Virus genome (UHGV): UHGV-2015158
Source of the DNA: a virus
Direction: 5' to 3' (one strand)
DNA length: 19,940 bases
Shown here one piece after another: positions 4,046 through 18,186 of this stretch; within the stretch, counting starts at the first letter, position 1, and each line of letters begins with the position of its first letter. A model generated the notes under the pieces. It was not told the origin of the DNA, made no database searches, and saw only the letters and a list, made by a program, of their open reading frames with translations. A program made the position numbers and the translations under genes.

Positions 4046-4259
4046 AAAGAAGATTTCCAATAATCAGAACAAGTCGGCTCCTGTTTAGTTACGAGCGACA
4101 TTGCTCAGTGTATTCACTCGTTGGAATGAATACACAGTGCAGTGTTTATTAGTATGCCTGTCTTTTAACCACATCAGGCTCGGTGGTTCTCGTGTACCCC
4201 TACAGCGAGAAATCGGATAAACTCTATTCACCCCTACAGAGAGCAAAAGAGAAACGCCG

Positions 4260-4841
4260 ATGAACAACTCATGGTGGCAGGAACTAATGCATTTTTTCCT
4301 GCAAGGAATGACACTTAAACAGTTGATTCATATGCTAATCATCCTGATCATATTGATTATTGTTATGCCTGTAAGCGTAAAAGAATGGATAAACCTGCAT
4401 AATCCAGAAATCCTTCCTCATTACTGGATGTATTACATCCTGTTGTTTTGCGTTAGCTATGTGCTTAACGGCGTTGTTAATTCCGCTTATCACGCTGTGA
4501 CTGTAAGAATTGAGATATTCGCTGCTCAGAAGCGCAAATCTAAAGAAGAGAAATACGTGCAAGATTTGTTTGATTCGTTAACTCTTGGAGAAAGAGCGTA
4601 TTTGGCATTCGCTGTAGCCGCTAATAACCAGCTAAAGACAGAAAAGGGAAGCCCTGAAGCAATCTCATTGCTCGAAAAAGGGCTTCTTATTCGGGTACCT
4701 TCTGCTACTGGATATCCTGAAATCGACCGTTTTGTTATCCCGGAACGCTATAGAAATGAGTGCTACATTAGGTTTGCTGGGAAGAAAGACAGTCTTATGG
4801 ATGAACTTATCGCTCAGGATAAGCATGGCAAAAACAAGTAA
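4260..4841 (+). CDS. sieB: superinfection exclusion protein B
   Basis: 193 aa, begins MNNSWWQELMHFFLQGMTLKQLIHMLIILIILIIVMPVSVKEW with hydrophobic N-terminus; matches remembered lambda SieB; convergent with N. Confidence 0.85.
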   Translation: MNNSWWQELMHFFLQGMTLKQLIHMLIILIILIIVMPVSVKEWINLHNPEILPHYWMYYILLFCVSYVLNGVVNSAYHAVTVRIEIFAAQKRKSKEEKYVQDLFDSLTLGERAYLAFAVAANNQLKTEKGSPEAISLLEKGLLIRVPSATGYPEIDRFVIPERYRNECYIRFAGKKDSLMDELIAQDKHGKNK

Positions 4842-4857
4842 TTAGCAAATGAATTTA

Positions 4858-5169
4858 TCATCTCGCCGTCAGTTGTTTTGATTTCCGGTAGCCTGCCGCG
4901 TAAATAGCTACGTTTGGCAGGCAAACACTTCCACTGCATTCATCTACTTTCTTGCAGCGAAGGCTTCCGAGTGATATTGCTTTTTCAGAAAGGCTTAACC
5001 GCTTTCTCGGGTCTTCCTGAACAGGTTCCTCACTGTCTGTGCCGAAGATCGAATCGATGATGTTGCAGATGGAATCACGCTCGATGGCCAGCTTTCTGCG
5101 CCGCTCATGACGGCGAGTTTTGGCATTTCCTGCAAATGTTGATTTTCCGTACACGATTACCGTCATGAT
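4858..5169 (-). CDS. N: N-type antiterminator (P22 gene 24-like)
   Basis: 103 aa from the internal Met of ORF 4858..5250 (MTVIVYGKSTFAGNAKTRRHERRRKLAIERD); arginine-rich RNA-binding motif as in P22 N, unlike lambda N. Confidence 0.8.
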   Translation of the reverse strand: MMTVIVYGKSTFAGNAKTRRHERRRKLAIERDSICNIIDSIFGTDSEEPVQEDPRKRLSLSEKAISLGSLRCKKVDECSGSVCLPNVAIYAAGYRKSKQLTAR

Positions 5170-5284
5170 GTTTTCCTCATGTGAAATGGCTTTGGTGGTG
5201 ATGCGCCAGATGCTGATCTTCTGGTTGCTGTCGTTACTGCTGCAATTCACATCACCCCAAACCCATCTCGTTTGGTATCTGTTC

Positions 5285-5319
5285 GCGCTTTGTCAGCGCA
5301 TCATCGAAGTTAAAGAGCC
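5285..5319 (-). promoter_or_regulatory. nutL site (boxA + boxB)
   Basis: On the minus strand, boxB GCGCU-GACAA-AGCGC (5285-5299) with the P22-type GACAA pentaloop, preceded by boxA-like GCTCTTTAAC (5309-5318). PL/OL must lie just upstream (about 5330-5420, contains TATAAT at 5365-5370) but were not resolved. Confidence 0.6.
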
Positions 5320-5572
5320 TGCCAATCTGTTCCGTTTGGCTGCCAGCGTCCTGCTGATGGCGATTATAATGAACCAATAGTTCGATATTATCAAGAACTA
5401 TAAGTACGAATTGTTTGTGGTTCATTAACTTAATGAGATATGTTTTTGATATGTAAAGGAATTTATTTTTGTAAAGATTGAAGATTGGTCAGTAGGAGAG
5501 AAAGAATTGTTTGCTGGCGTGTTAGTTCGTGGGTTAGCACATGTGCGGATGTTAAATAAGGTAGACGATCGT

Positions 5573-5602
5573 GAGGAAAAGAAAAACCGGCGCTGAGGCC
5601 GG
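5573..5602 (-). terminator. intrinsic terminator after the immunity-region transcript
   Basis: Hairpin CCGGC-gctgag-GCCGG (5587-5602) followed on the minus strand by a U-tract (A-run 5573-5586 on plus), within 35 nt of the 5609..6508 stop; positionally like lambda t-imm. Confidence 0.5.
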
Positions 5603-5608
5603 GTATAA

Positions 5609-6508
5609 TTATTTGATTATTTCTTTTATAAAGACTTCTTTCGGTTGGTATTTTTTATCTGATGATTTGAGCTGGTACGTTATTGTTATATCAGCACGTA
5701 CAGAAAATTTACCTGCAAAATCTGATGGGTTTACGTTGGGGCCAAGAACCATATTTACTCTTCGATCTATTAATCCAGGGATAACAGCAGCCCAACCTTT
5801 CTCTGGATTGTCGAGGTCTAATGCACGGATTTCAACATCAACATCAAAATGATCCTGAGTATATGACTCTGGTGTGAAGACAACTTCAGTTGGGGCTTTT
5901 TTAATGGTTTCAGCGGGAATGGTCACTGTACCACCCCCTGTACCTATGACCATCGTAGATCCTTCGTCTGCCCTAGCTGGGGCAAGCGTCTTAATGGAAC
6001 TTTTGGCAAGAGTCTTCTTATTGGTTACCGTGCTTTCTATGATTGCTTGAAGACGGTCAGGTGAAATATTAGCCTCACCGGCACCAATATTGATGATTGT
6101 ATTGTTATTTGCTTCAAAGTGGGAGGTGTTGCTTGGAGCCATAGCCTTAGTTGCTAGAACTAAGCCATATCCAACCAGACCAATAACAACAGCACCAACG
6201 AGAGCGTTTCTCATTTTCCCATTTCCGATCTTTGCATGAGCGCCAGCAAGAAACTTGTCCATTTCTTCTTGGCTACCAAAGAGGAGTTTAATAACAATAT
6301 CTTCATAAAGGCTTCCTGCTTCTAATCGCGCAACATGCACCGATATATCAAGGATATTAGCCCCTGTCAGTTCCTGCAAAACACCTTCTGATTGTTTTGC
6401 GATGGCCTCCCACCCTTGAAGGGAGGTAATCACATCTTTGATGCTTACAGGTTCTTTAGTTGAATAATATATGTTTTCGGTAAAGGTTAAAGATAATTCT
6501 TGGGACAT
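5609..6508 (-). CDS. unrecognised 299-aa single-pass membrane protein in the rexAB slot
   Basis: Uninterrupted ORF with GAGGG RBS 5 nt before the ATG; one hydrophobic segment (residues about 101-124, NALVGAVVIGLVGYGLVLATKAMA, encoded about 6137-6208) preceded by K/R; AT-rich versus flanks; sits between cI and PL/N. No family recognised. Confidence 0.65.
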   Translation of the reverse strand: MSQELSLTFTENIYYSTKEPVSIKDVITSLQGWEAIAKQSEGVLQELTGANILDISVHVARLEAGSLYEDIVIKLLFGSQEEMDKFLAGAHAKIGNGKMRNALVGAVVIGLVGYGLVLATKAMAPSNTSHFEANNNTIINIGAGEANISPDRLQAIIESTVTNKKTLAKSSIKTLAPARADEGSTMVIGTGGGTVTIPAETIKKAPTEVVFTPESYTQDHFDVDVEIRALDLDNPEKGWAAVIPGLIDRRVNMVLGPNVNPSDFAGKFSVRADITITYQLKSSDKKYQPKEVFIKEIIK

Positions 6509-6637
6509 CCGAGCCCTCGCTGTTTCTTTCGATTTGCTGTGTTAAGCTAATATTTTAATATCCATGTTTCTGTTTGCTTGCAGTGTGTTTCTCACCACCA
6601 TCCAAACGTACTGGTTACTAGCTATGTGATGATGAAG

Positions 6638-7345
6638 TCATGAACTTTTCAGCCATTCCCTGGCCTCGATGTCATCTAGGTGGCGAGATTGCTTCAGAAT
6701 ACCAGCTACATACTCCACCTTTGCTACTTGATGATAAGGCAACGTTATTGGCCTGTGGTCTTGGTTGATGCTTGTAAATTGGTATTCTCCGTCTCTGTCA
6801 TAGCCAAGAACCTTGATCATGTTGTGCCCTTCAATGGTTCTGACAAACACCTCATCACCTGGGAATACTTTGGTGTTAGGCTCAATGAGTACATATTCTC
6901 CTGATTTTATTCTGGGCCACATGCTGTCTCCTTTTACACGAAGACCAAAGGCATCTGGATCATCGCTATAAATCTTGAGCCACCCATCGCGCTCTTCGGT
7001 CATCTCGATGGCACCATCAACACCAAGAATTGCCTCACCAACCACGCGCACTAACCCTTTTTTTAATTTGCCAACAATTGAAAAAGTATCTTCATCATTC
7101 GCTCCATTTAACGAAGTGCCGTGCTGAAGCCAAACAACATCAACGTTTAGAAATTTCGCAAGCGCATTCATTTTTTCCTGGCGTGGTAAAGACTCAGCAT
7201 TAAACCATTTGCTAACGCCTTTGGACGAAAGAGAAAGGGCACGGGCTATGGCCATTCCCCTACCATGTTCATCAAGACCAGCTTCTTTACAGGCTTGCGC
7301 TAGCCGCTGGGCGAATTCTTTGCGCACTTTTTCATTCTGAACCAT
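6638..7345 (-). CDS. cI: CI-type prophage repressor (HTH + S24 LexA-like peptidase domain)
   Basis: 235 aa; N-terminal HTH region and C-terminal autocleavage motif (VKGDSMWPRIKSGEYVLIEP); divergent from leftward-operon genes; not the lambda, 434 or P22 repressor sequence. Confidence 0.9.
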   Translation of the reverse strand: MVQNEKVRKEFAQRLAQACKEAGLDEHGRGMAIARALSLSSKGVSKWFNAESLPRQEKMNALAKFLNVDVVWLQHGTSLNGANDEDTFSIVGKLKKGLVRVVGEAILGVDGAIEMTEERDGWLKIYSDDPDAFGLRVKGDSMWPRIKSGEYVLIEPNTKVFPGDEVFVRTIEGHNMIKVLGYDRDGEYQFTSINQDHRPITLPYHQVAKVEYVAGILKQSRHLDDIEAREWLKSS

Positions 7346-12320: not shown

Positions 12321-12698
12321 ATGCGTGATATTCAGATGGTTCTTGAGCGTTGGGGAGCGTGGGCGGCTAATAATCATGAAGATGTGACCTGGTCGTCCAT
12401 TGCCGCCGGTTTTAAGGGATTAATTCCTTCAAAAGTAAAATCTCGCCCGCAATGTTGTGACGATGACGCGATGATCATTTGCGGGTGCATGGCCCGTCTG
12501 AAAAATAACAACAGCGATTTGCATGATTTGTTAGTGGACTATTATGTCGGCGGCATGACTTTTATGGCGCTTGCGCGTAAGCATGGTAGATCTGATTGTT
12601 GGATTGGCAGGATGCTCCAAAAAGCTGAGGGCGTAGTGGAGGGCATGCTGATGGTGTTGGATCTCAGATTGGAGATGGATGCTGATTGTTTGAGATAA
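12321..12698 (+). CDS. Q: late-gene antiterminator Q (DLP12 QuuD / phage 82 type)
   Basis: 125 aa from ATG 12321 ([70 protein letters not shown]), GGAG RBS upstream; resembles QuuD rather than lambda Q. Confidence 0.85.
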
Positions 12699-12798
12699 TT
12701 AAAGGAAAAGTTGCTGTCTGGTTATCATTAGACTAATGTTTCAAATGTTAGAATCGCAACGTAGTTATGATCATATAACAGCTTGTTCCCTGATTTAG

Positions 12799-12826
12799 CC
12801 AGCCTCCCCAAAGGCTGGTTTTTTTT
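12799..12826 (+). terminator. intrinsic terminator downstream of Q (tR'-like)
   Basis: Hairpin CCAGCC-tccccaaa-GGCTGG (12799-12818) followed by T8 (12819-12826). A weak -10-like TAGAAT at 12749-12754 may mark PR' but is not well supported. Confidence 0.55.
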
Positions 12827-12854
12827 CTAATAAGTATCAATCCGGTTAGGTATT

Positions 12855-13379
12855 TTATTGTTTGACCCATAATAGTTCATTGACATTGAATCCCAATTTT
12901 TGAGCAGTACGCACATAGTCTGCTTTTACATTATCTGGAATAGTTGGAGTCCGTGCCAGAATCCATAGGTATTCTCTGTTCGGACCACTGACAAGAGCAT
13001 ACTTATACTCATCATCCAGTTTGATTACATTATAGCCACCATAGAAGGGGCCAAAAAACGAAACCTTCAACGCTGCAGTTGTATTATCTCCTGTAAAGTA
13101 TGCTTTACCTTCGCTCTCGCTCCATTTGTTTTTCGTTGGGTCATATCCACGATTAAGTACACTAATCCCTCCGTCGTTCCGTTTCCCATAAGTGGCGCTG
13201 ACCTGTTCCAGACCACGTTCAAATCGGTTCTCAAGCCGAGCTATTTCATACCATTTTCCGAGGTAGCGGTTGGTGTCAAAATTTGTAATCGGCTGCACAC
13301 CTTTAGGTGGTGTCGGGGCCTTACATGCTATCAGAGTGAAAGAGAGTGCAATGCCAGTCAACACAGGCCATAACTTCAT
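12855..13379 (-). CDS. bacterial lipocalin (Blc-like) outer-membrane lipoprotein
   Basis: 174 aa; lipoprotein signal with lipobox LIAC (MKLWPVLTGIALSFTLIAC); lipocalin-type motifs (GKWYEIARLEN ... YALVSGPNREYLWILART); opposite orientation to late genes. Confidence 0.8.
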   Translation of the reverse strand: MKLWPVLTGIALSFTLIACKAPTPPKGVQPITNFDTNRYLGKWYEIARLENRFERGLEQVSATYGKRNDGGISVLNRGYDPTKNKWSESEGKAYFTGDNTTAALKVSFFGPFYGGYNVIKLDDEYKYALVSGPNREYLWILARTPTIPDNVKADYVRTAQKLGFNVNELLWVKQ

Positions 13380-13571
13380 AATATATCCTGTACTTTTGAT
13401 AGTTGAGAGTAAGTATTAAAGATAGATGATTACTACCGATCACCTAAAGAACTTTCCTACTATATTAGGAATAGTCCATAACAAAAAAATTGTCAGTGAT
13501 GACGGCAGAAAGGCAGTTTAGGTCGTGTACTACACTGTTAACCTGTTAATGAATTAGTCAAGGGGTAGGCA

Positions 13572-14531
13572 ATGATAAAAAAACCTGTCGTTGGGATCAG
13601 TGGTTGTTTGGCCGGTTCTTCTGTCCGTTTTGATGGTGGTCACAAAAGAGCTAGCTTTTTAATGGACAAATTACTGGAATGGGTAACATTCAAACCAGTA
13701 TGTCCGGAAATGGCTATAGGGCTTCCAGTTCCGCGTCCTGCTCTACGTCTTGTTCGCTCGGCGCAAGGAAATATACGGATGTGTTTCAGCCACGACCAGA
13801 ATGAGGATGTTACAGAGAAAATGACAGAGTTTAGTCGTTCTTATCTTGACAAATTAAAGGATGTATCGGGATTTGTGGTTTGTGCAAAATCTCCTAGCTG
13901 TGGTATGGAACGCGTGCGTGTATATGATGAAAATGGTAATCGTGGTCGTAAAGATGGAGTGGGACTATTTACGAGCACGTTGATGGAAAGGTTTTCCTGG
14001 CTACCGGTTGAAGAGGATGGGCGACTACATGATCCAGTGCTTCGTGAAAACTTTGTTGAAAGAGTATTTGCTTTACATGAGCTCAATCATCTTTATAAAG
14101 CGAAATTATCAAGAAGGGAATTATTAGCTTTTCATAGCCGTTATAAGCTTCAGTTGTTGGCGCATAGCCAGGCCGGTTATAAAGAGATGGGGCCATTTGT
14201 GGCTGCAATACATGAGTGGGCAGACCTTGAATCATACTTTGAGGTGTATCGTGAGAAGCTGATGGCGATTCTCAGAAAACCTGCATCACGTAAAAATCAC
14301 ACGAATGTGCTGATGCATATACAGGGATATTTTAGTAACTGCTTAAATACACGTCAGCGTAAAGAGTTGAGCGATGTTATACTTAACTATCGAGCTGGCA
14401 CGCTACCTCTTCTTGCGCCATTAACTTTGCTGAAGCATTACTTGGCAGAGTATCCTGATGATTATTTGCTTATACAGAATTACTTCCACCCCTATCCTGA
14501 TGAACTGGCTCTAAGACTCTTGGTGAACTAG
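13572..14531 (+). CDS. DUF523/DUF1722 (YbgA-like) protein
   Basis: 319 aa; N-terminal Cys-containing motif (GISGCLAGSSVRFDGGHK ... CPEM ... SPSCG) typical of DUF523/TudS-like proteins, with a YbgA-like C-terminal half; family-level call from memory. Confidence 0.7.
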   Translation: MIKKPVVGISGCLAGSSVRFDGGHKRASFLMDKLLEWVTFKPVCPEMAIGLPVPRPALRLVRSAQGNIRMCFSHDQNEDVTEKMTEFSRSYLDKLKDVSGFVVCAKSPSCGMERVRVYDENGNRGRKDGVGLFTSTLMERFSWLPVEEDGRLHDPVLRENFVERVFALHELNHLYKAKLSRRELLAFHSRYKLQLLAHSQAGYKEMGPFVAAIHEWADLESYFEVYREKLMAILRKPASRKNHTNVLMHIQGYFSNCLNTRQRKELSDVILNYRAGTLPLLAPLTLLKHYLAEYPDDYLLIQNYFHPYPDELALRLLVN

Positions 14532-14849
14532 GCGTTTGGAATGCACCAACAAGATGATTTTCTCCTTAGAGAATGTTTACAATCGTAAAAACTTCACTAT
14601 GATATCTATAGTTGTACAGTTTGTAAAAAAATTCGGTTCATGCTTAAGGTAATGTTAATATGTTAATTAATGATTAATAATCAAGCAAGCCAAAAATAGT
14701 TCTGTTTAATCTAGTATTACATAAATATTTTAAAGAAAATATCAAAGTTCATGATGATATAATGAGATTTTTCTCATTGAAAATATGGCAATTTTAATAT
14801 TTCCACCTATACTTACTTAACTCAAATCTAATTATGTCAGGTGGATGGT

Positions 14850-15581
14850 ATGCCATGCATATGTTCTATCATTTTGGTTTTGAACTCGTTTGATATCCGG
14901 CTTGGTAAAGAAAAAATCTCTCTAAAAAAAGGAAGTGTTGTTGCTATAGAATACAATTTAAAAGTTTTCTTTTCTTCAAATAAAGATAATATAATGATCG
15001 TGGATATTGAAGAGAAAACAGTTAATGACTTCTTTAAAAACAATACACTCTCACCTTTTTCTGTAAGAAGATTTTATTCAGCATACTTGATAGTAAACTG
15101 TACAGACTATTCATTGTTAAAGAACTTGATAGGTTGCTTGAATTGTGATGGTGAAACTACGGCTGTAGTTAAAAATTCAATATTATTTGCATGTCTTGCT
15201 ATTTTATCCTCGGAAAAAATGTTTCAGAGTTTTTTGTTTGGGTGTCTTAATAGTTTAGGAAGCAAAGTTAAGGCTATTATTCACTCGGACATATCTGCAG
15301 CATGGAGACTTTGTGATATTTCTTCAAGACTATGTCTGAGTGAAAGTTTGTTAAAAAGAAAACTAAAACACGAAGGCTTATCATTTAGCAAATTAATTCT
15401 TGAAGAACGAATGGTGATGGCTGAAAGGTTATTAAGCTACAATTTCTATCCTGTTGGGAAAGTTGCTAAAATATGTGGTTATGAAAGCGCGTCATATTTT
15501 ATAAGTGTTTTCAGAAGATATTTTGGTGTTCCCCCCCATGAATATTCATCAAGATTTTTTTTAGAAAAAGGCAAGATGTAA
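14850..15581 (+). CDS. AraC-family transcriptional regulator (AppY/EnvY-like)
   Basis: 243 aa from ATG 14850 (AGGTGG RBS); C-terminal AraC-type HTH (KVAKICGYESASYFISVFRRYFGVPPHEY); N-terminus resembles AppY; gene and flanks very AT-rich. Confidence 0.8.
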   Translation: MPCICSIILVLNSFDIRLGKEKISLKKGSVVAIEYNLKVFFSSNKDNIMIVDIEEKTVNDFFKNNTLSPFSVRRFYSAYLIVNCTDYSLLKNLIGCLNCDGETTAVVKNSILFACLAILSSEKMFQSFLFGCLNSLGSKVKAIIHSDISAAWRLCDISSRLCLSESLLKRKLKHEGLSFSKLILEERMVMAERLLSYNFYPVGKVAKICGYESASYFISVFRRYFGVPPHEYSSRFFLEKGKM

Positions 15582-15643
15582 CGTGATGCGTTTTGATGAT
15601 TTTGTAATTTTCATATTTGATGATTATATGATGCTTTCAGCTA

Positions 15644-15674
15644 CGCCAGAATAATCGCTGGCGTTTTTCTTTTC
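15644..15674 (+). terminator. intrinsic terminator after the AraC-family gene
   Basis: Hairpin CGCCAG-aataat-CTGGCG (15644-15662) followed by TTTTTCTTTTC (15663-15673). Confidence 0.5.
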
Positions 15675-15748
15675 TAATGTAACTTCTGTATCTTTCCCTC
15701 TTTCATTCCAAACCGTGTACACCATCCGTTATTCGCGGAGGTGAGGCT

Positions 15749-15964
15749 ATGAAATCCATGGACAAGTTAACAACGGGCATTGCCTACGGCACCTCTGCAG
15801 GCAGTGCTGGCTACTGGTTTTTACAGTGGCTTGATCAGGTCAGTCCGTCACAGTGGGCGGCGATTGGAGTGCTTGGAAGCCTTGTGTTGGGTTTTCTCAC
15901 TTATCTGACAAACCTTTATTTCAAGATTAAAGAAGATAAGCGTAAGGCTGCGAGAGGTGAATAA
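15749..15964 (+). CDS. S: class II holin (phage 21 S-type pinholin) with dual start
   Basis: 71 aa; [71 protein letters not shown]; matches S21/EssD; Met1 and Met4 give the antiholin/holin dual-start motif; GGAGG RBS. Confidence 0.9.
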
Positions 15965-16461
15965 TGTCGCCATCATTACGCAAGGCTGTAGCAGCTGCTA
16001 TTGGTGGTGGGGCTGTTGCCATAGCGTCTGTGCTCATCACTGGTCCGAGTGGTGACGATGGTCTGGAAGGTGTCAGCTACATACCATATAAAGATATTGT
16101 TGGTGTATGGACTGTATGTCACGGGCATACAGGAAAAGACATCATGCTCGGTAAAACGTATACCAAAGCAGAATGCAAAGCACTCTTGAATAAAGACCTT
16201 GCCACTGTCGCCAGACAAATTAACCCGTACATCAAAGTCGATATACCGGAAACAACGCGCGGCGCTCTTTACTCATTCGTTTACAACGTGGGTGCTGGCA
16301 ATTTCAGAACATCGACGCTTCTTCGCAAAATAAACCAGGGCGATATCAAAGGCGCATGTGATCAGTTACGTCGCTGGACATATGCTGGCGGTAAGCAATG
16401 GAAAGGTCTCATGACTCGTCGTGAGATTGAGCGTGAAATCTGTTTGTGGGGTCAGCAATGA
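15964..16461 (+). CDS. R: SAR endolysin (phage 21 R-type lysozyme)
   Basis: 165 aa; N-terminal signal-anchor-release segment ([20 protein letters not shown]) followed by a lysozyme domain; start overlaps the holin stop. Confidence 0.9.
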
Positions 16462-16919
16462 ACAGAGTAACCGCGATTATCTCCGCTCTGGTTATCTGCA
16501 TCATCGTCTGCCTGTCATGGGCTGTTAATCATTACCGTGATAACGCCATTACCTACAAAGCCCAGCGCGACAAAAATGCCAGAGAACTGAAGCTGGCGAA
16601 CGCGGCAATTACTGACATGCAGATGCGTCAGCGTGATGTTGCTGCGCTCGATGCAAAATACACGAAGGAGTTAGCTGATGCGAAAGCTGAAAATGATGCT
16701 CTGCGTGATGATGTTGCCGCTGGTCGTCGTCGGTTGCACATCAAAGCAGTCTGTCAGTCAGTGCGTGAAGCCACCACCGCCTCCGGCGTGGATAATGCAG
16801 CCTCCCCCCGACTGGCAGACACCGCTGAACGGGATTATTTCACCCTCAGAGAGAGGCTGATCACGATGCAAAAACAACTGGAAGGAACCCAGAAGTATAT
16901 TAATGAGCAGTGCAGATAG
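16458..16919 (+). CDS. Rz: Rz inner-membrane spanin
   Basis: 153 aa from the internal Met of ORF 16446..16919 ([21 protein letters not shown]...), N-terminal TM segment then coiled-coil-like region; ATGA overlap with the endolysin. Confidence 0.85.
16678..16860 (+). CDS. Rz1: Rz1 outer-membrane lipoprotein spanin (embedded in Rz)
   Basis: 60-aa ORF in the +1 frame wholly inside Rz; lipoprotein signal with lipobox (LVVVGC) and proline-rich body ([15 protein letters not shown]). Confidence 0.75.
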
Positions 16920-16950: not shown

Positions 16951-17244
16951 TTATTGTGAGCAATAGACACGCGCTTCCAGCGGAGTATAAATGCCTAAAG
17001 TAATAAAACCGAGCAATCCATTTACGAATGTTTGCTGGGTTTCTGTTTTAACAACATTTTCTGCGCCGCCACAAATTTTGGCTGCATCAACAGTTTTCTC
17101 CTGTCCAATTCCCGAAACGAAGAAGTGATGGGTGATGGTTTCCTTTGGTGTTACTGCTGTCGGTTTGTTTCCAACAGTAAACGTCTGTTGAGCACATCCT
17201 GTAATAAGCATTGCCAGAGCGGCAGAAAACAACATTTTTTTCAT
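16951..17244 (-). CDS. bor: Bor serum-resistance lipoprotein
   Basis: 97 aa from the internal Met of ORF 16951..17292 (MKKMLFSAALAMLITGCAQQTFTVGNKP...EARVYCSQ); matches lambda Bor; lipobox ITGC. Confidence 0.9.
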   Translation of the reverse strand: MKKMLFSAALAMLITGCAQQTFTVGNKPTAVTPKETITHHFFVSGIGQEKTVDAAKICGGAENVVKTETQQTFVNGLLGFITLGIYTPLEARVYCSQ

Positions 17245-17959: not shown

Positions 17960-18186
17960 CATTTTGTGGGTCCTTTCCGGCGATCCGACAGGTTACGGGG
18001 CGGCGACCTCGCGGGTTTTCGCTATTTATGAAAATTTTCCGGTTTAAGGTGTTTCCGTTCTTCTTCGTCGTAACTTAATGTATTTATTTAAAATACCCCC
18101 TGAAAAGAAAGGAAACGACAGGTGCTGAAAGCGAGCTTTTTGGCCTCTGTCGTTTCCTTTCTCTGTTTTTGTCCGTGGAATGAGCA
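17960..18186 (+). other. cos packaging site (cosQ-cosN-cosB)
   Basis: Lambda right-end sequence ...CCGACAGGTTACG is directly followed by the left-end cohesive-end sequence GGGCGGCGACCT (cosN core 17998-18009); downstream R3/R2/R1-like CGTTTCC repeats before nu1. Confidence 0.85.

Follow-up and report, generated by a model that had tools for sequence, protein, structure and literature searches.

An exchangeable three-gene cargo cassette between the Q and holin genes of a 1H12-type lambdoid coliphage

The stretch of DNA analyzed here, in the following called the window, is the UHGV virus genome UHGV-2015158 with a length of 19,940 nucleotides. In this window the gene of the late antiterminator Q ends at position 12698 and the holin gene, with which the lysis cassette begins, starts at position 15749, leaving a gap of 3,050 bp. 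A first-pass annotation made from the sequence alone had described an island of about 3 kb at this place that carries three non-phage-type genes in mixed orientation, none of them resembling a toxin subunit, and this description holds in both respects. The gap contains exactly three genes, which code for a Blc-type lipocalin on the minus strand, a protein combining a TudS and a DUF1722 domain (RudS) on the plus strand and an AraC-family regulator, likewise on the plus strand. Toxin-like domains were not found among the three cargo genes in a domain search and no tRNA genes were found in the Q-holin interval. Furthermore, no Rfam family reached its threshold in the island, and PADLOC yielded no defence-system match for any of the cargo proteins. 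A sub-threshold Rfam match of a terminator hairpin to a 'toxic sRNA' (small RNA) family, scoring 26 bits where 50 are required, was dismissed as a generic hairpin.

The island differs in its base composition from the phage genes that surround it. Its guanine-cytosine (GC) content is 0.374 compared to 0.459 for the window, with values of 0.436 for the lipocalin gene (blc), 0.427 for rudS, 0.313 for the araC-like gene and 0.267 for the spacer between the latter two, while the phage genes Q (0.474), rusA (0.532) and holin (0.472) reflect flanks of about 0.47–0.53. A GC profile, which the first-pass annotation had proposed as a check, thus marks the island as compositionally foreign, as is expected of a moron. 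The boundary alignment against lambdoid relatives, proposed there as well, gave junctions at 12680/12681 and 15737/15738, close to the interval of 12699–15700 noted initially. Using blastn, homology to the porin-carrying prophage DLP12 of Escherichia coli K-12 and to phage ev243 reaches as far as 12680, 18 nt short of the Q stop codon, and sets in again at 15738, with 11 nt left to the holin ATG, so that the exchangeable cassette extends from 12681 to 15737. The flanks are common to the window, DLP12 and ev243 at 91–93% identity. Since the left junction lies inside the 3′ end of Q, the last six Q codons and the whole presumed pR′/tR′ region are exchanged along with the cargo.

Between the same two junctions, DLP12 and ev243 carry a minus-strand porin gene (nmpC/ompD) in place of the three genes, which are hence absent from this position in close relatives, a further property expected of a moron. 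In the phage collection, 12 records possess the three-gene block, and most of the other listed records with the same Q and holin possess the porin. The initial view of the Q-to-S slot as a cargo site is borne out by these relatives, as they share the Q family, holin, endolysin and spanin and differ in what lies between. Some of the relatives without the three genes, namely ev243, ev099, 4A7 and the PhiR phages, are plaque-forming isolates, which indicates indirectly that the island is dispensable for lytic growth. As judged from these alignments, the block is a swappable cargo (moron) cassette situated at a Q-to-holin exchange point with fixed junctions.

We were able to assign the element that carries the cassette to a known phage type. 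A copy 100% identical to the window is found in E. coli chromosomes, where it adjoins icd, and 11 isolated temperate coliphages, including Lambda_ev110, Lambda_2E9 and 1H12 (genus Jouyvirus), match the whole window at 99.8–99.9% identity. The window therefore shows, in prophage form, the right arm of a phage type that is functional and had been sequenced before, and the element hosting the cassette is a lambdoid coliphage of the 1H12 (Jouyvirus) type, likewise functional, that is integrated beside icd. The island is 99.9–100% identical in the isolated phages and corresponds to gp65–gp67 of phage 1H12. Consequently, the novelty implied by the first-pass annotation was overstated: the identical cassette is present in published and annotated phages, blc has been listed as a moron (PMC6969025) and the product of the middle gene has been assayed (PMC11417400). 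The cassette is already known and partly characterized in published coliphage genomes and is hence ordinary. The same annotation had named as an objection to its own reading that the three genes might be ubiquitous and characterized backbone genes of a described phage group. This applies in one half only, as the genes are widespread in such a group but are accessory and do not belong to its backbone. A full-text literature search using the RefSeq and GenBank accessions of four proteins found nothing.

The middle gene of the cassette (13572–14531, plus strand) encodes RudS, a tRNA 4-thiouridine de-modifying enzyme of 319 amino acids in which a TudS (DUF523) desulfidase is fused to a DUF1722 (YbgA-family) domain. 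PF04463 covers residues 7–149 with 137.7 bits and PF08349 residues 192–309 with 138.8 bits. The protein matches gp66 of phage 1H12, that is RudS_vir, at 100% identity. RudS_vir was synthesized and assayed by Jamontas et al. in 2024, and its overexpression in E. coli BL21(DE3) lowered the tRNA content of 4-thiouridine (s4U) (PMC11417400). The residues Cys12, Cys44 and Cys110, which bind the [4Fe-4S] cluster of RudS_vir (PMC11417400), can all be read directly in the sequence. In the same study no other tested RudS variant gave as short a lag on 4-thiouracil as RudS_vir, and RudS expression in general reduced the growth delay of E. coli induced by ultraviolet A (UVA) light (PMC11417400). Chromosomal RudS genes frequently lie in operons that respond to light, together with a photolyase or a LitR/MerR regulator (PMC11417400). 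When compared to this family, the phage protein has the same two domains and the same three cysteines for cluster binding, and its sequence is that of the viral member that was assayed; the phage copy differs in that it has lost the LitR/MerR-type regulator and sits in a late operon.

The lipocalin gene (12855–13379, minus strand) codes for a blc-like outer-membrane lipoprotein of 174 amino acids, which matches PF08212 with 148 bits and the NCBIfam Blc subfamily NF007786 with 315.5 bits, above the cut-off of 267. Its N-terminus, MKLWPVLTGIALSFTLIAC-K, contains the lipobox LIAC with Cys19, as read from the sequence. E. coli Blc binds lysophospholipids or fatty acids at the outer membrane. The phage protein resembles this Blc (b4149) in passing the Blc cut-off, in its lipobox and in its near-equal length (174 compared to 177 amino acids), and is 59.8% identical to the K-12 protein, yet it represents a second, phage-borne paralogue. 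It is closer to the rudS-linked lipocalins of Enterobacter, Kosakonia and Kluyvera (73–81%) than to the ampC-linked blc of E. coli. Mathieu et al. count blc among the morons and report it for over half of their lambda-like coliphages, a collection that includes 1H12 and 2E9 (PMC6969025). A paper on the orf6 and orf10 prophage genes of avian pathogenic E. coli, which mentions a lipocalin (PMC7724020), was set aside, as these genes encode a tail fibre protein and a conserved hypothetical protein.

The third gene (14850–15581, plus strand, GC 0.313) encodes an AraC/XylS-family regulator of 243 amino acids of the AppY/YdeO/GadX/PatE type. The C-terminal double helix-turn-helix (HTH_18/HTH_AraC) is present at residues 158–234 (PF12833, 56.8 bits; PF00165, 47.6 bits). 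While the protein can be aligned over its full length with AppY (30% identity), YdeO (28%) and EnvY (32%), it is not an equivalog of the named regulators, since its best NCBIfam match, YdeO, reaches 112.7 bits against a cut-off of 348, and GadX 98.7 against 500. Its closest distinct relative is P0075, which is 52% identical and located at about 313 kb in O157:H7 genomes beside pao (xanthine-dehydrogenase-like) genes. P0075 is probably PatE (z0321, O-island 8; PMC10877973), an assignment based on its position in O157:H7 genomes. Regulons for acid resistance and stress are activated by PatE, PsrB and AppY (PMC10877973, PMC10057817), and by analogy our best guess is that the AraC-like protein may have a role in acid-resistance or stress regulons as well. 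It shares with PatE, PsrA and PsrB of enterohemorrhagic E. coli and with AppY of DLP12 the character of a small, AT-rich, prophage-borne AraC/XylS protein with a C-terminal double helix-turn-helix. The location differs, since the AraC-like gene lies between Q and holin, whereas appY is found at a prophage end and psrA/psrB are described as associated with effector loci. Phage records of the 1H12 type annotate the third cargo gene only as 'hypothetical protein' or 'putative transcription regulator', and this PatE/AppY-like regulator is the sole uncharacterized component of the cassette. A contig from Logan (SRR33953907, locus positions 5045–6735) carries, in another prophage, a 62%-identical AraC-like gene directly 3′ of a Q of a different family (PF03589, 250 amino acids), following ninE-ybcO-rusA-ylcG. 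Hence, whichever Q family is present, regulators of this type are met again in the slot behind Q.

We then considered how widespread the cassette is and whether it is maintained. Of 5,426 complete E. coli genomes, 1,152 match the island; the match spans at least 80% of the island in 683 of these, and 110 reach an identity of at least 99%. A large group of genomes matches over blc and rudS only, but these still possess a third gene, namely an AraC-like allele of 76% identity, a divergence too great for megablast. The trio is found on lambda-like, DLP12-like (locus L007) and Qin-like (locus L005) backbones. In BL21(DE3), which served as host in the RudS assays, an IS3-truncated remnant is kept: here Q-blc-rudS lies on a Qin-like prophage and the insertion sequence (IS) cuts rudS after 49 codons (NZ_CP053602, 1585487–1594505; locus positions 4873–5019). 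The RudS paper describes E. coli as being without RudS or TudS homologues (PMC11417400). Going by the genome matches, this statement is valid for BL21(DE3) and K-12 but not for about a fifth of the complete E. coli genomes.

The BL21(DE3) remnant, together with insertions and truncations by IS1, IS2 and IS3 in some genomes, would be compatible with the cassette being a neutral hitch-hiker that is linked to a successful Q/lysis module and has no current function for phage or host, as would the fact that no phenotype is known for the blc or araC-like gene of this phage. We regard this as very improbable. All three open reading frames (ORFs) are intact, and between variants with synonymous divergences (dS) of 0.19–0.37 the ratio of nonsynonymous to synonymous divergence (dN/dS) is 0.07–0.08 for blc, 0.10–0.13 for rudS and 0.25–0.28 for the araC-like gene, from which it follows that all three genes are under purifying selection. 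Moreover, the trio has been retained on at least three prophage backbones, and the RudS protein is enzymatically active (PMC11417400).

The nearest RudS homologues outside Escherichia are 70–76% identical and chromosomal, occurring in Citrobacter, Klebsiella, Kluyvera, Enterobacter, Buttiauxella and Kosakonia. In ten Kluyvera genomes (L033, L039, L041 and others, locus positions ~5350–6960) a divergent lipocalin gene of 73–76% identity is found some 115 bp upstream of rudS, and the pair is located between radD and yejK outside of any prophage. Enterobacter and Kosakonia have the lipocalin gene and rudS separated by a gene for an MlrA/MerR-like regulator (L028, L038, locus positions ~4200–6960). 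Going by this arrangement, blc and rudS were most likely captured by the phage as one chromosomal unit with a GC content of about 43%. The much more AT-rich araC-like gene (GC 31%) is considered a separate acquisition. An outer-membrane lipocalin and the eraser of tRNA s4U are repeatedly encoded close together in the chromosomes of several Enterobacteriaceae. Since Enterobacter and Kosakonia carry the MlrA-like gene between both genes, an operator of the MerR type was sought in the blc/rudS spacer. The palindrome GTGTACTACAC at 13525 was rejected, as it is not conserved in 90%-identical variants and is absent from all chromosomal homologues, and no conserved operator was found in 13380–13571. 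Two short contigs (L059, L078) from a metagenome-assembled genome labelled 'Candidatus Nanosynbacter sp.' (Saccharibacteria) also contain the cassette at 88–98% protein identity, which almost certainly reflects a binning contaminant.

The position of the cassette directly behind Q raises the question of how it is transcribed. The Q gene (12321–12698, plus strand) encodes a late antiterminator of the QuuD/phage-21 type with 125 amino acids (PF06530, 173 bits), which is 87.5% identical to QuuD of K-12 and homologous to the Q21 structures 6P18 and 6JNX (E = 2e-8). A canonical Q cassette consists of the Q gene, the promoter pR′ along with elements for Q binding and for sigma-dependent pausing, a terminator and the late genes (bioRxiv 10.1101/651190). 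Two terminators had been named by the first-pass annotation as the cargo's own, and both exist. The first (12797–12828, plus strand) is formed by a stem-loop at 12797–12820 with a 9-bp stem followed by a run of eight T (−14.2 kcal/mol, z = −3.8). Its U-tract is present on the plus strand only, with none on the minus strand, it is located about 100 bp 3′ of Q and upstream of all plus-strand cargo, and no plus-strand gene lies between Q and the hairpin. We thus read it as tR′ and not as a cargo terminator, so that its assignment to the cargo does not stand; it is probably the target of Q antitermination. Among variants of the cassette, whose overall identity is about 90%, the interval from Q to blc shows a conservation of 97%.

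The second hairpin (15643–15674, plus strand) does fit a cargo terminator. It comprises a 7-bp GC-rich stem at 15643–15664 followed by a T-rich tail (−12.1 kcal/mol, z = −2.05) and is positioned 3′ of the araC-like gene and 75–85 bp before the holin gene. By its placement it is likely to insulate the lysis genes from cargo promoters in the lysogen. The number of terminator-like sites in the region is no higher than in shuffled sequences (3 compared to 2.7), and we therefore base the weight given to both terminators on their position and strength and not on their count. In a consensus scan, no promoter-like site was seen in the 167 bp (15582–15748) that separate the araC-like gene from the holin gene, and since none lies between the second terminator and holin, late transcripts would have to cross the island. 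A moron is further expected to have a promoter and a terminator of its own. While the terminator is seen at 15643–15674, the promoters amount to consensus-level matches. The presumed sites of cargo promoters are the divergent blc/rudS intergenic region (13380–13571), in which one weak plus-strand promoter-like site was detected at 13403–13430, and the AT-rich rudS-araC spacer (14532–14849). The latter harbors the best sigma-70-like matches of the region at 14576–14603 on the plus strand and 14627–14599 on the minus strand, both being consensus matches of 10/12. These two overlap and share their −10 hexamers, one pointing toward the araC-like gene and the other running antisense into the 3′ end of rudS, and they may be due to chance in AT-rich DNA.

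Taken together, we interpret the island as a composite moron cassette in the Q-to-holin slot of a late region of the DLP12/phage-21 type, which arose from two acquisitions, the blc/rudS pair and the araC-like gene, and we assign this reading, including the following course of events, a probability of roughly three in four. In the lysogen, the cargo genes would be expressed from their own promoters in the 13380–13571 and 14532–14849 spacers as lysogenic-conversion functions. Blc would then contribute to outer-membrane lipid homeostasis and RudS to near-UV tolerance, while the AraC-like protein would rewire stress and acid-resistance regulons of the host as PatE, PsrB and AppY do, and the plus-strand terminator at 15643–15674 would keep cargo transcripts out of holin. 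Upon induction, Q would load onto RNA polymerase at a late promoter within about 100 bp after Q. The polymerase would pass tR′ at 12797–12828 and transcribe blc in antisense and rudS and the araC-like gene in sense. Q-modified polymerase would finally override the second terminator and enter the lysis and morphogenesis genes. Both the read-through by means of Q and the antisense transcription of blc are predictions from this geometry, in agreement with the first-pass annotation.

Several results weigh against this interpretation. The island contains 12 promoter-like sites compared to 11.4 in shuffled sequences. A late promoter, a pause element and a Q-binding site were sought in 12699–12797 and not located, nor does this interval contain a 6-bp direct repeat or a Q-binding element of the Q21 type. 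The sole scan candidate for the late promoter, at 12670–12699, is a weak match of 9/12 and is not conserved in DLP12, which has a 20-nt spacer there. In addition, RudS_vir showed the lowest tRNA desulfidation activity among the tested enzymes despite good expression (PMC11417400). The −10-like hexamers seen by eye after Q (TAATGT, TAGAAT, TATGAT and TATAAC) are only partly conserved.

The missing late promoter and Q-binding element would be accounted for if the cargo were not coupled to Q at all, that is, if the late promoter lay downstream of the island or the island were read from the early pR transcript. The swap point inside the 3′ end of Q points in the same direction, as the Q-utilization region is for this reason not obviously common with DLP12. 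Yet the 167 bp before the holin gene contain a terminator and no promoter-like site, and the homology to DLP12 and ev243 returns only 11 bp before the holin ATG, so that a shared promoter upstream of holin is not present. A strong plus-strand terminator that is not preceded by a gene and lies about 100 bp after Q has the geometry of tR′, and the conservation of the Q-to-blc interval exceeds the cassette average (97% compared to about 90%). Finally, the window, DLP12 and ev243 have in common a short block, ATATAACAG, which is situated similarly far from the Q stop in each and represents a candidate element. Of the explanations considered here, we therefore judge a cargo without Q coupling to be the least probable.

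If the cargo is indeed part of the late transcript, its genes could also serve the lytic cycle. According to this explanation, rudS and perhaps the araC-like gene would be auxiliary genes carried mainly for the benefit of the phage in the Q-dependent late transcript, where they remodel the host during induction. For example, erasure of s4U8 from tRNA could spare a UV-triggered induction the cross-linking of tRNA by near-UV light and a delay in growth, which would reduce the synthesis of late proteins. Such a role is favored by UV being the classical trigger of prophage induction, by the position of rudS and the araC-like gene between the tR′-like terminator and holin in the direction of the late operon, and by the retention of the cassette in plaque-forming phages. 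The lowering of tRNA s4U and of UVA-induced growth delay by RudS expression in E. coli (PMC11417400) is equally in line with it. The orientation of the genes, however, carries little information, as it was probably fixed by a single capture of the divergent pair, and the porin-carrying relatives are equally viable phages. Moreover, the late transcript runs antisense to blc, a terminator of its own closes the cassette as in morons expressed in the lysogen, and SOS induction responds to UVC/UVB damage whereas s4U cross-linking is an effect of UVA. The comparatively low activity of RudS_vir on tRNA (PMC11417400) also counts against this explanation, which we consider unlikely while granting it some weight.

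Beyond the interpretation as a composite moron cassette, the three genes might be selected together as a module for stress survival, with those on the plus strand serving as late genes in addition. On UV/SOS induction, Q-driven RudS would erase the near-UV sensor s4U8 from tRNA and thereby avert a stringent-type growth delay that throttles late protein synthesis, while the PatE-like regulator would reprogram host stress regulons; through lysogeny, the thiolation of tRNA, the tolerance of UVA and the control of acid resistance would then depart from those of K-12 in about a fifth of E. coli strains. We put this idea forward as a distinctly doubtful one.

As a discovery the locus is of little weight, since the slot, the cassette and two of the three genes are already on record. 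It nevertheless bears on several questions. As about a fifth of the complete E. coli genomes match the rudS-bearing cassette, strain differences in tRNA s4U and in the response to UVA may be determined by prophages. The third gene is an uncharacterized relative of PatE, PsrB and AppY, which act on acid-resistance and virulence regulons, and it is frequent in human isolates. The natural exchange of cargo at fixed junctions (porin versus blc-rudS-araC) is useful for studying how such swaps preserve the late switch.

The lysis cassette (15749–16919, plus strand) is composed of a phage-21/EssD-type holin (15749–15964; PF04971, 91.5% amino acid identity to EssD of K-12), the endolysin RrrD (15964–16461) and the spanin RzpD (16458–16919). 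Just 3′ of the lysis genes lies a further known moron, the serum-resistance lipoprotein gene bor/iss (16951–17244, minus strand; PF06291), annotated in RefSeq as 'Iss'. In a chromosome with a 100% identical copy, the annotated order is integrase, excisionase, exo/bet/gam, kil, cIII, sieB, cI-like repressor, cro/cII, O, P, ren, nin genes, rusA, ylcG, Q, lipocalin, YbgA-family protein, helix-turn-helix protein, class II holin, RrrD, RzpD, Iss/Bor, YlcI and terminase. The linear records of the isolated phages stop at window position ~18000 (~17997–18001), which places the cos site of the prophage between ylcI and the small terminase gene nohD. An ORF of 299 amino acids at 5609–6508 on the minus strand is situated upstream of the cI-like repressor gene, on the same strand and between the repressor and an N-like gene, a position that rexAB occupies in lambda. 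It has no Pfam or PADLOC match, its only hit being PHROG 4506 (unknown function), and it is a candidate exclusion or defence gene.

When compared to known systems, the closest match is the region gp64–gp68 of phage 1H12 (Jouyvirus jv1H12, NC_049947) and of its siblings Lambda_2E9, 4B5, 2G7a, ev110 and others, which share the cassette sequence, the gene order and the flanks. Nothing of substance sets the window apart from this group, the window being the integrated prophage form. Stx (Shiga toxin) phages of the 933W type are arranged as Q, pR′/tR′, in some cases tRNAs, stxAB and S, with the cargo between Q and holin and plus-strand cargo in the late transcript. The cargo of the window is likewise placed downstream of Q and upstream of holin. 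It differs from Stx-type toxin cargo in that the island has no toxin domains and no tRNAs, the Q family is unlike Q933, one cargo gene is antisense and the cargo has its own terminator before holin. The late region of DLP12 in K-12 (quuD-nmpC-essD-rrrD-rzpD-borD) shares the backbone of rusA, ylcG, Q, holin, RrrD, RzpD, Bor, YlcI and NohD as well as foreign cargo in the same slot, with the junctions at 12680 and 15738. While the cargo of DLP12 is a single minus-strand porin gene, the window carries three genes, two of which are co-directional with the late operon.

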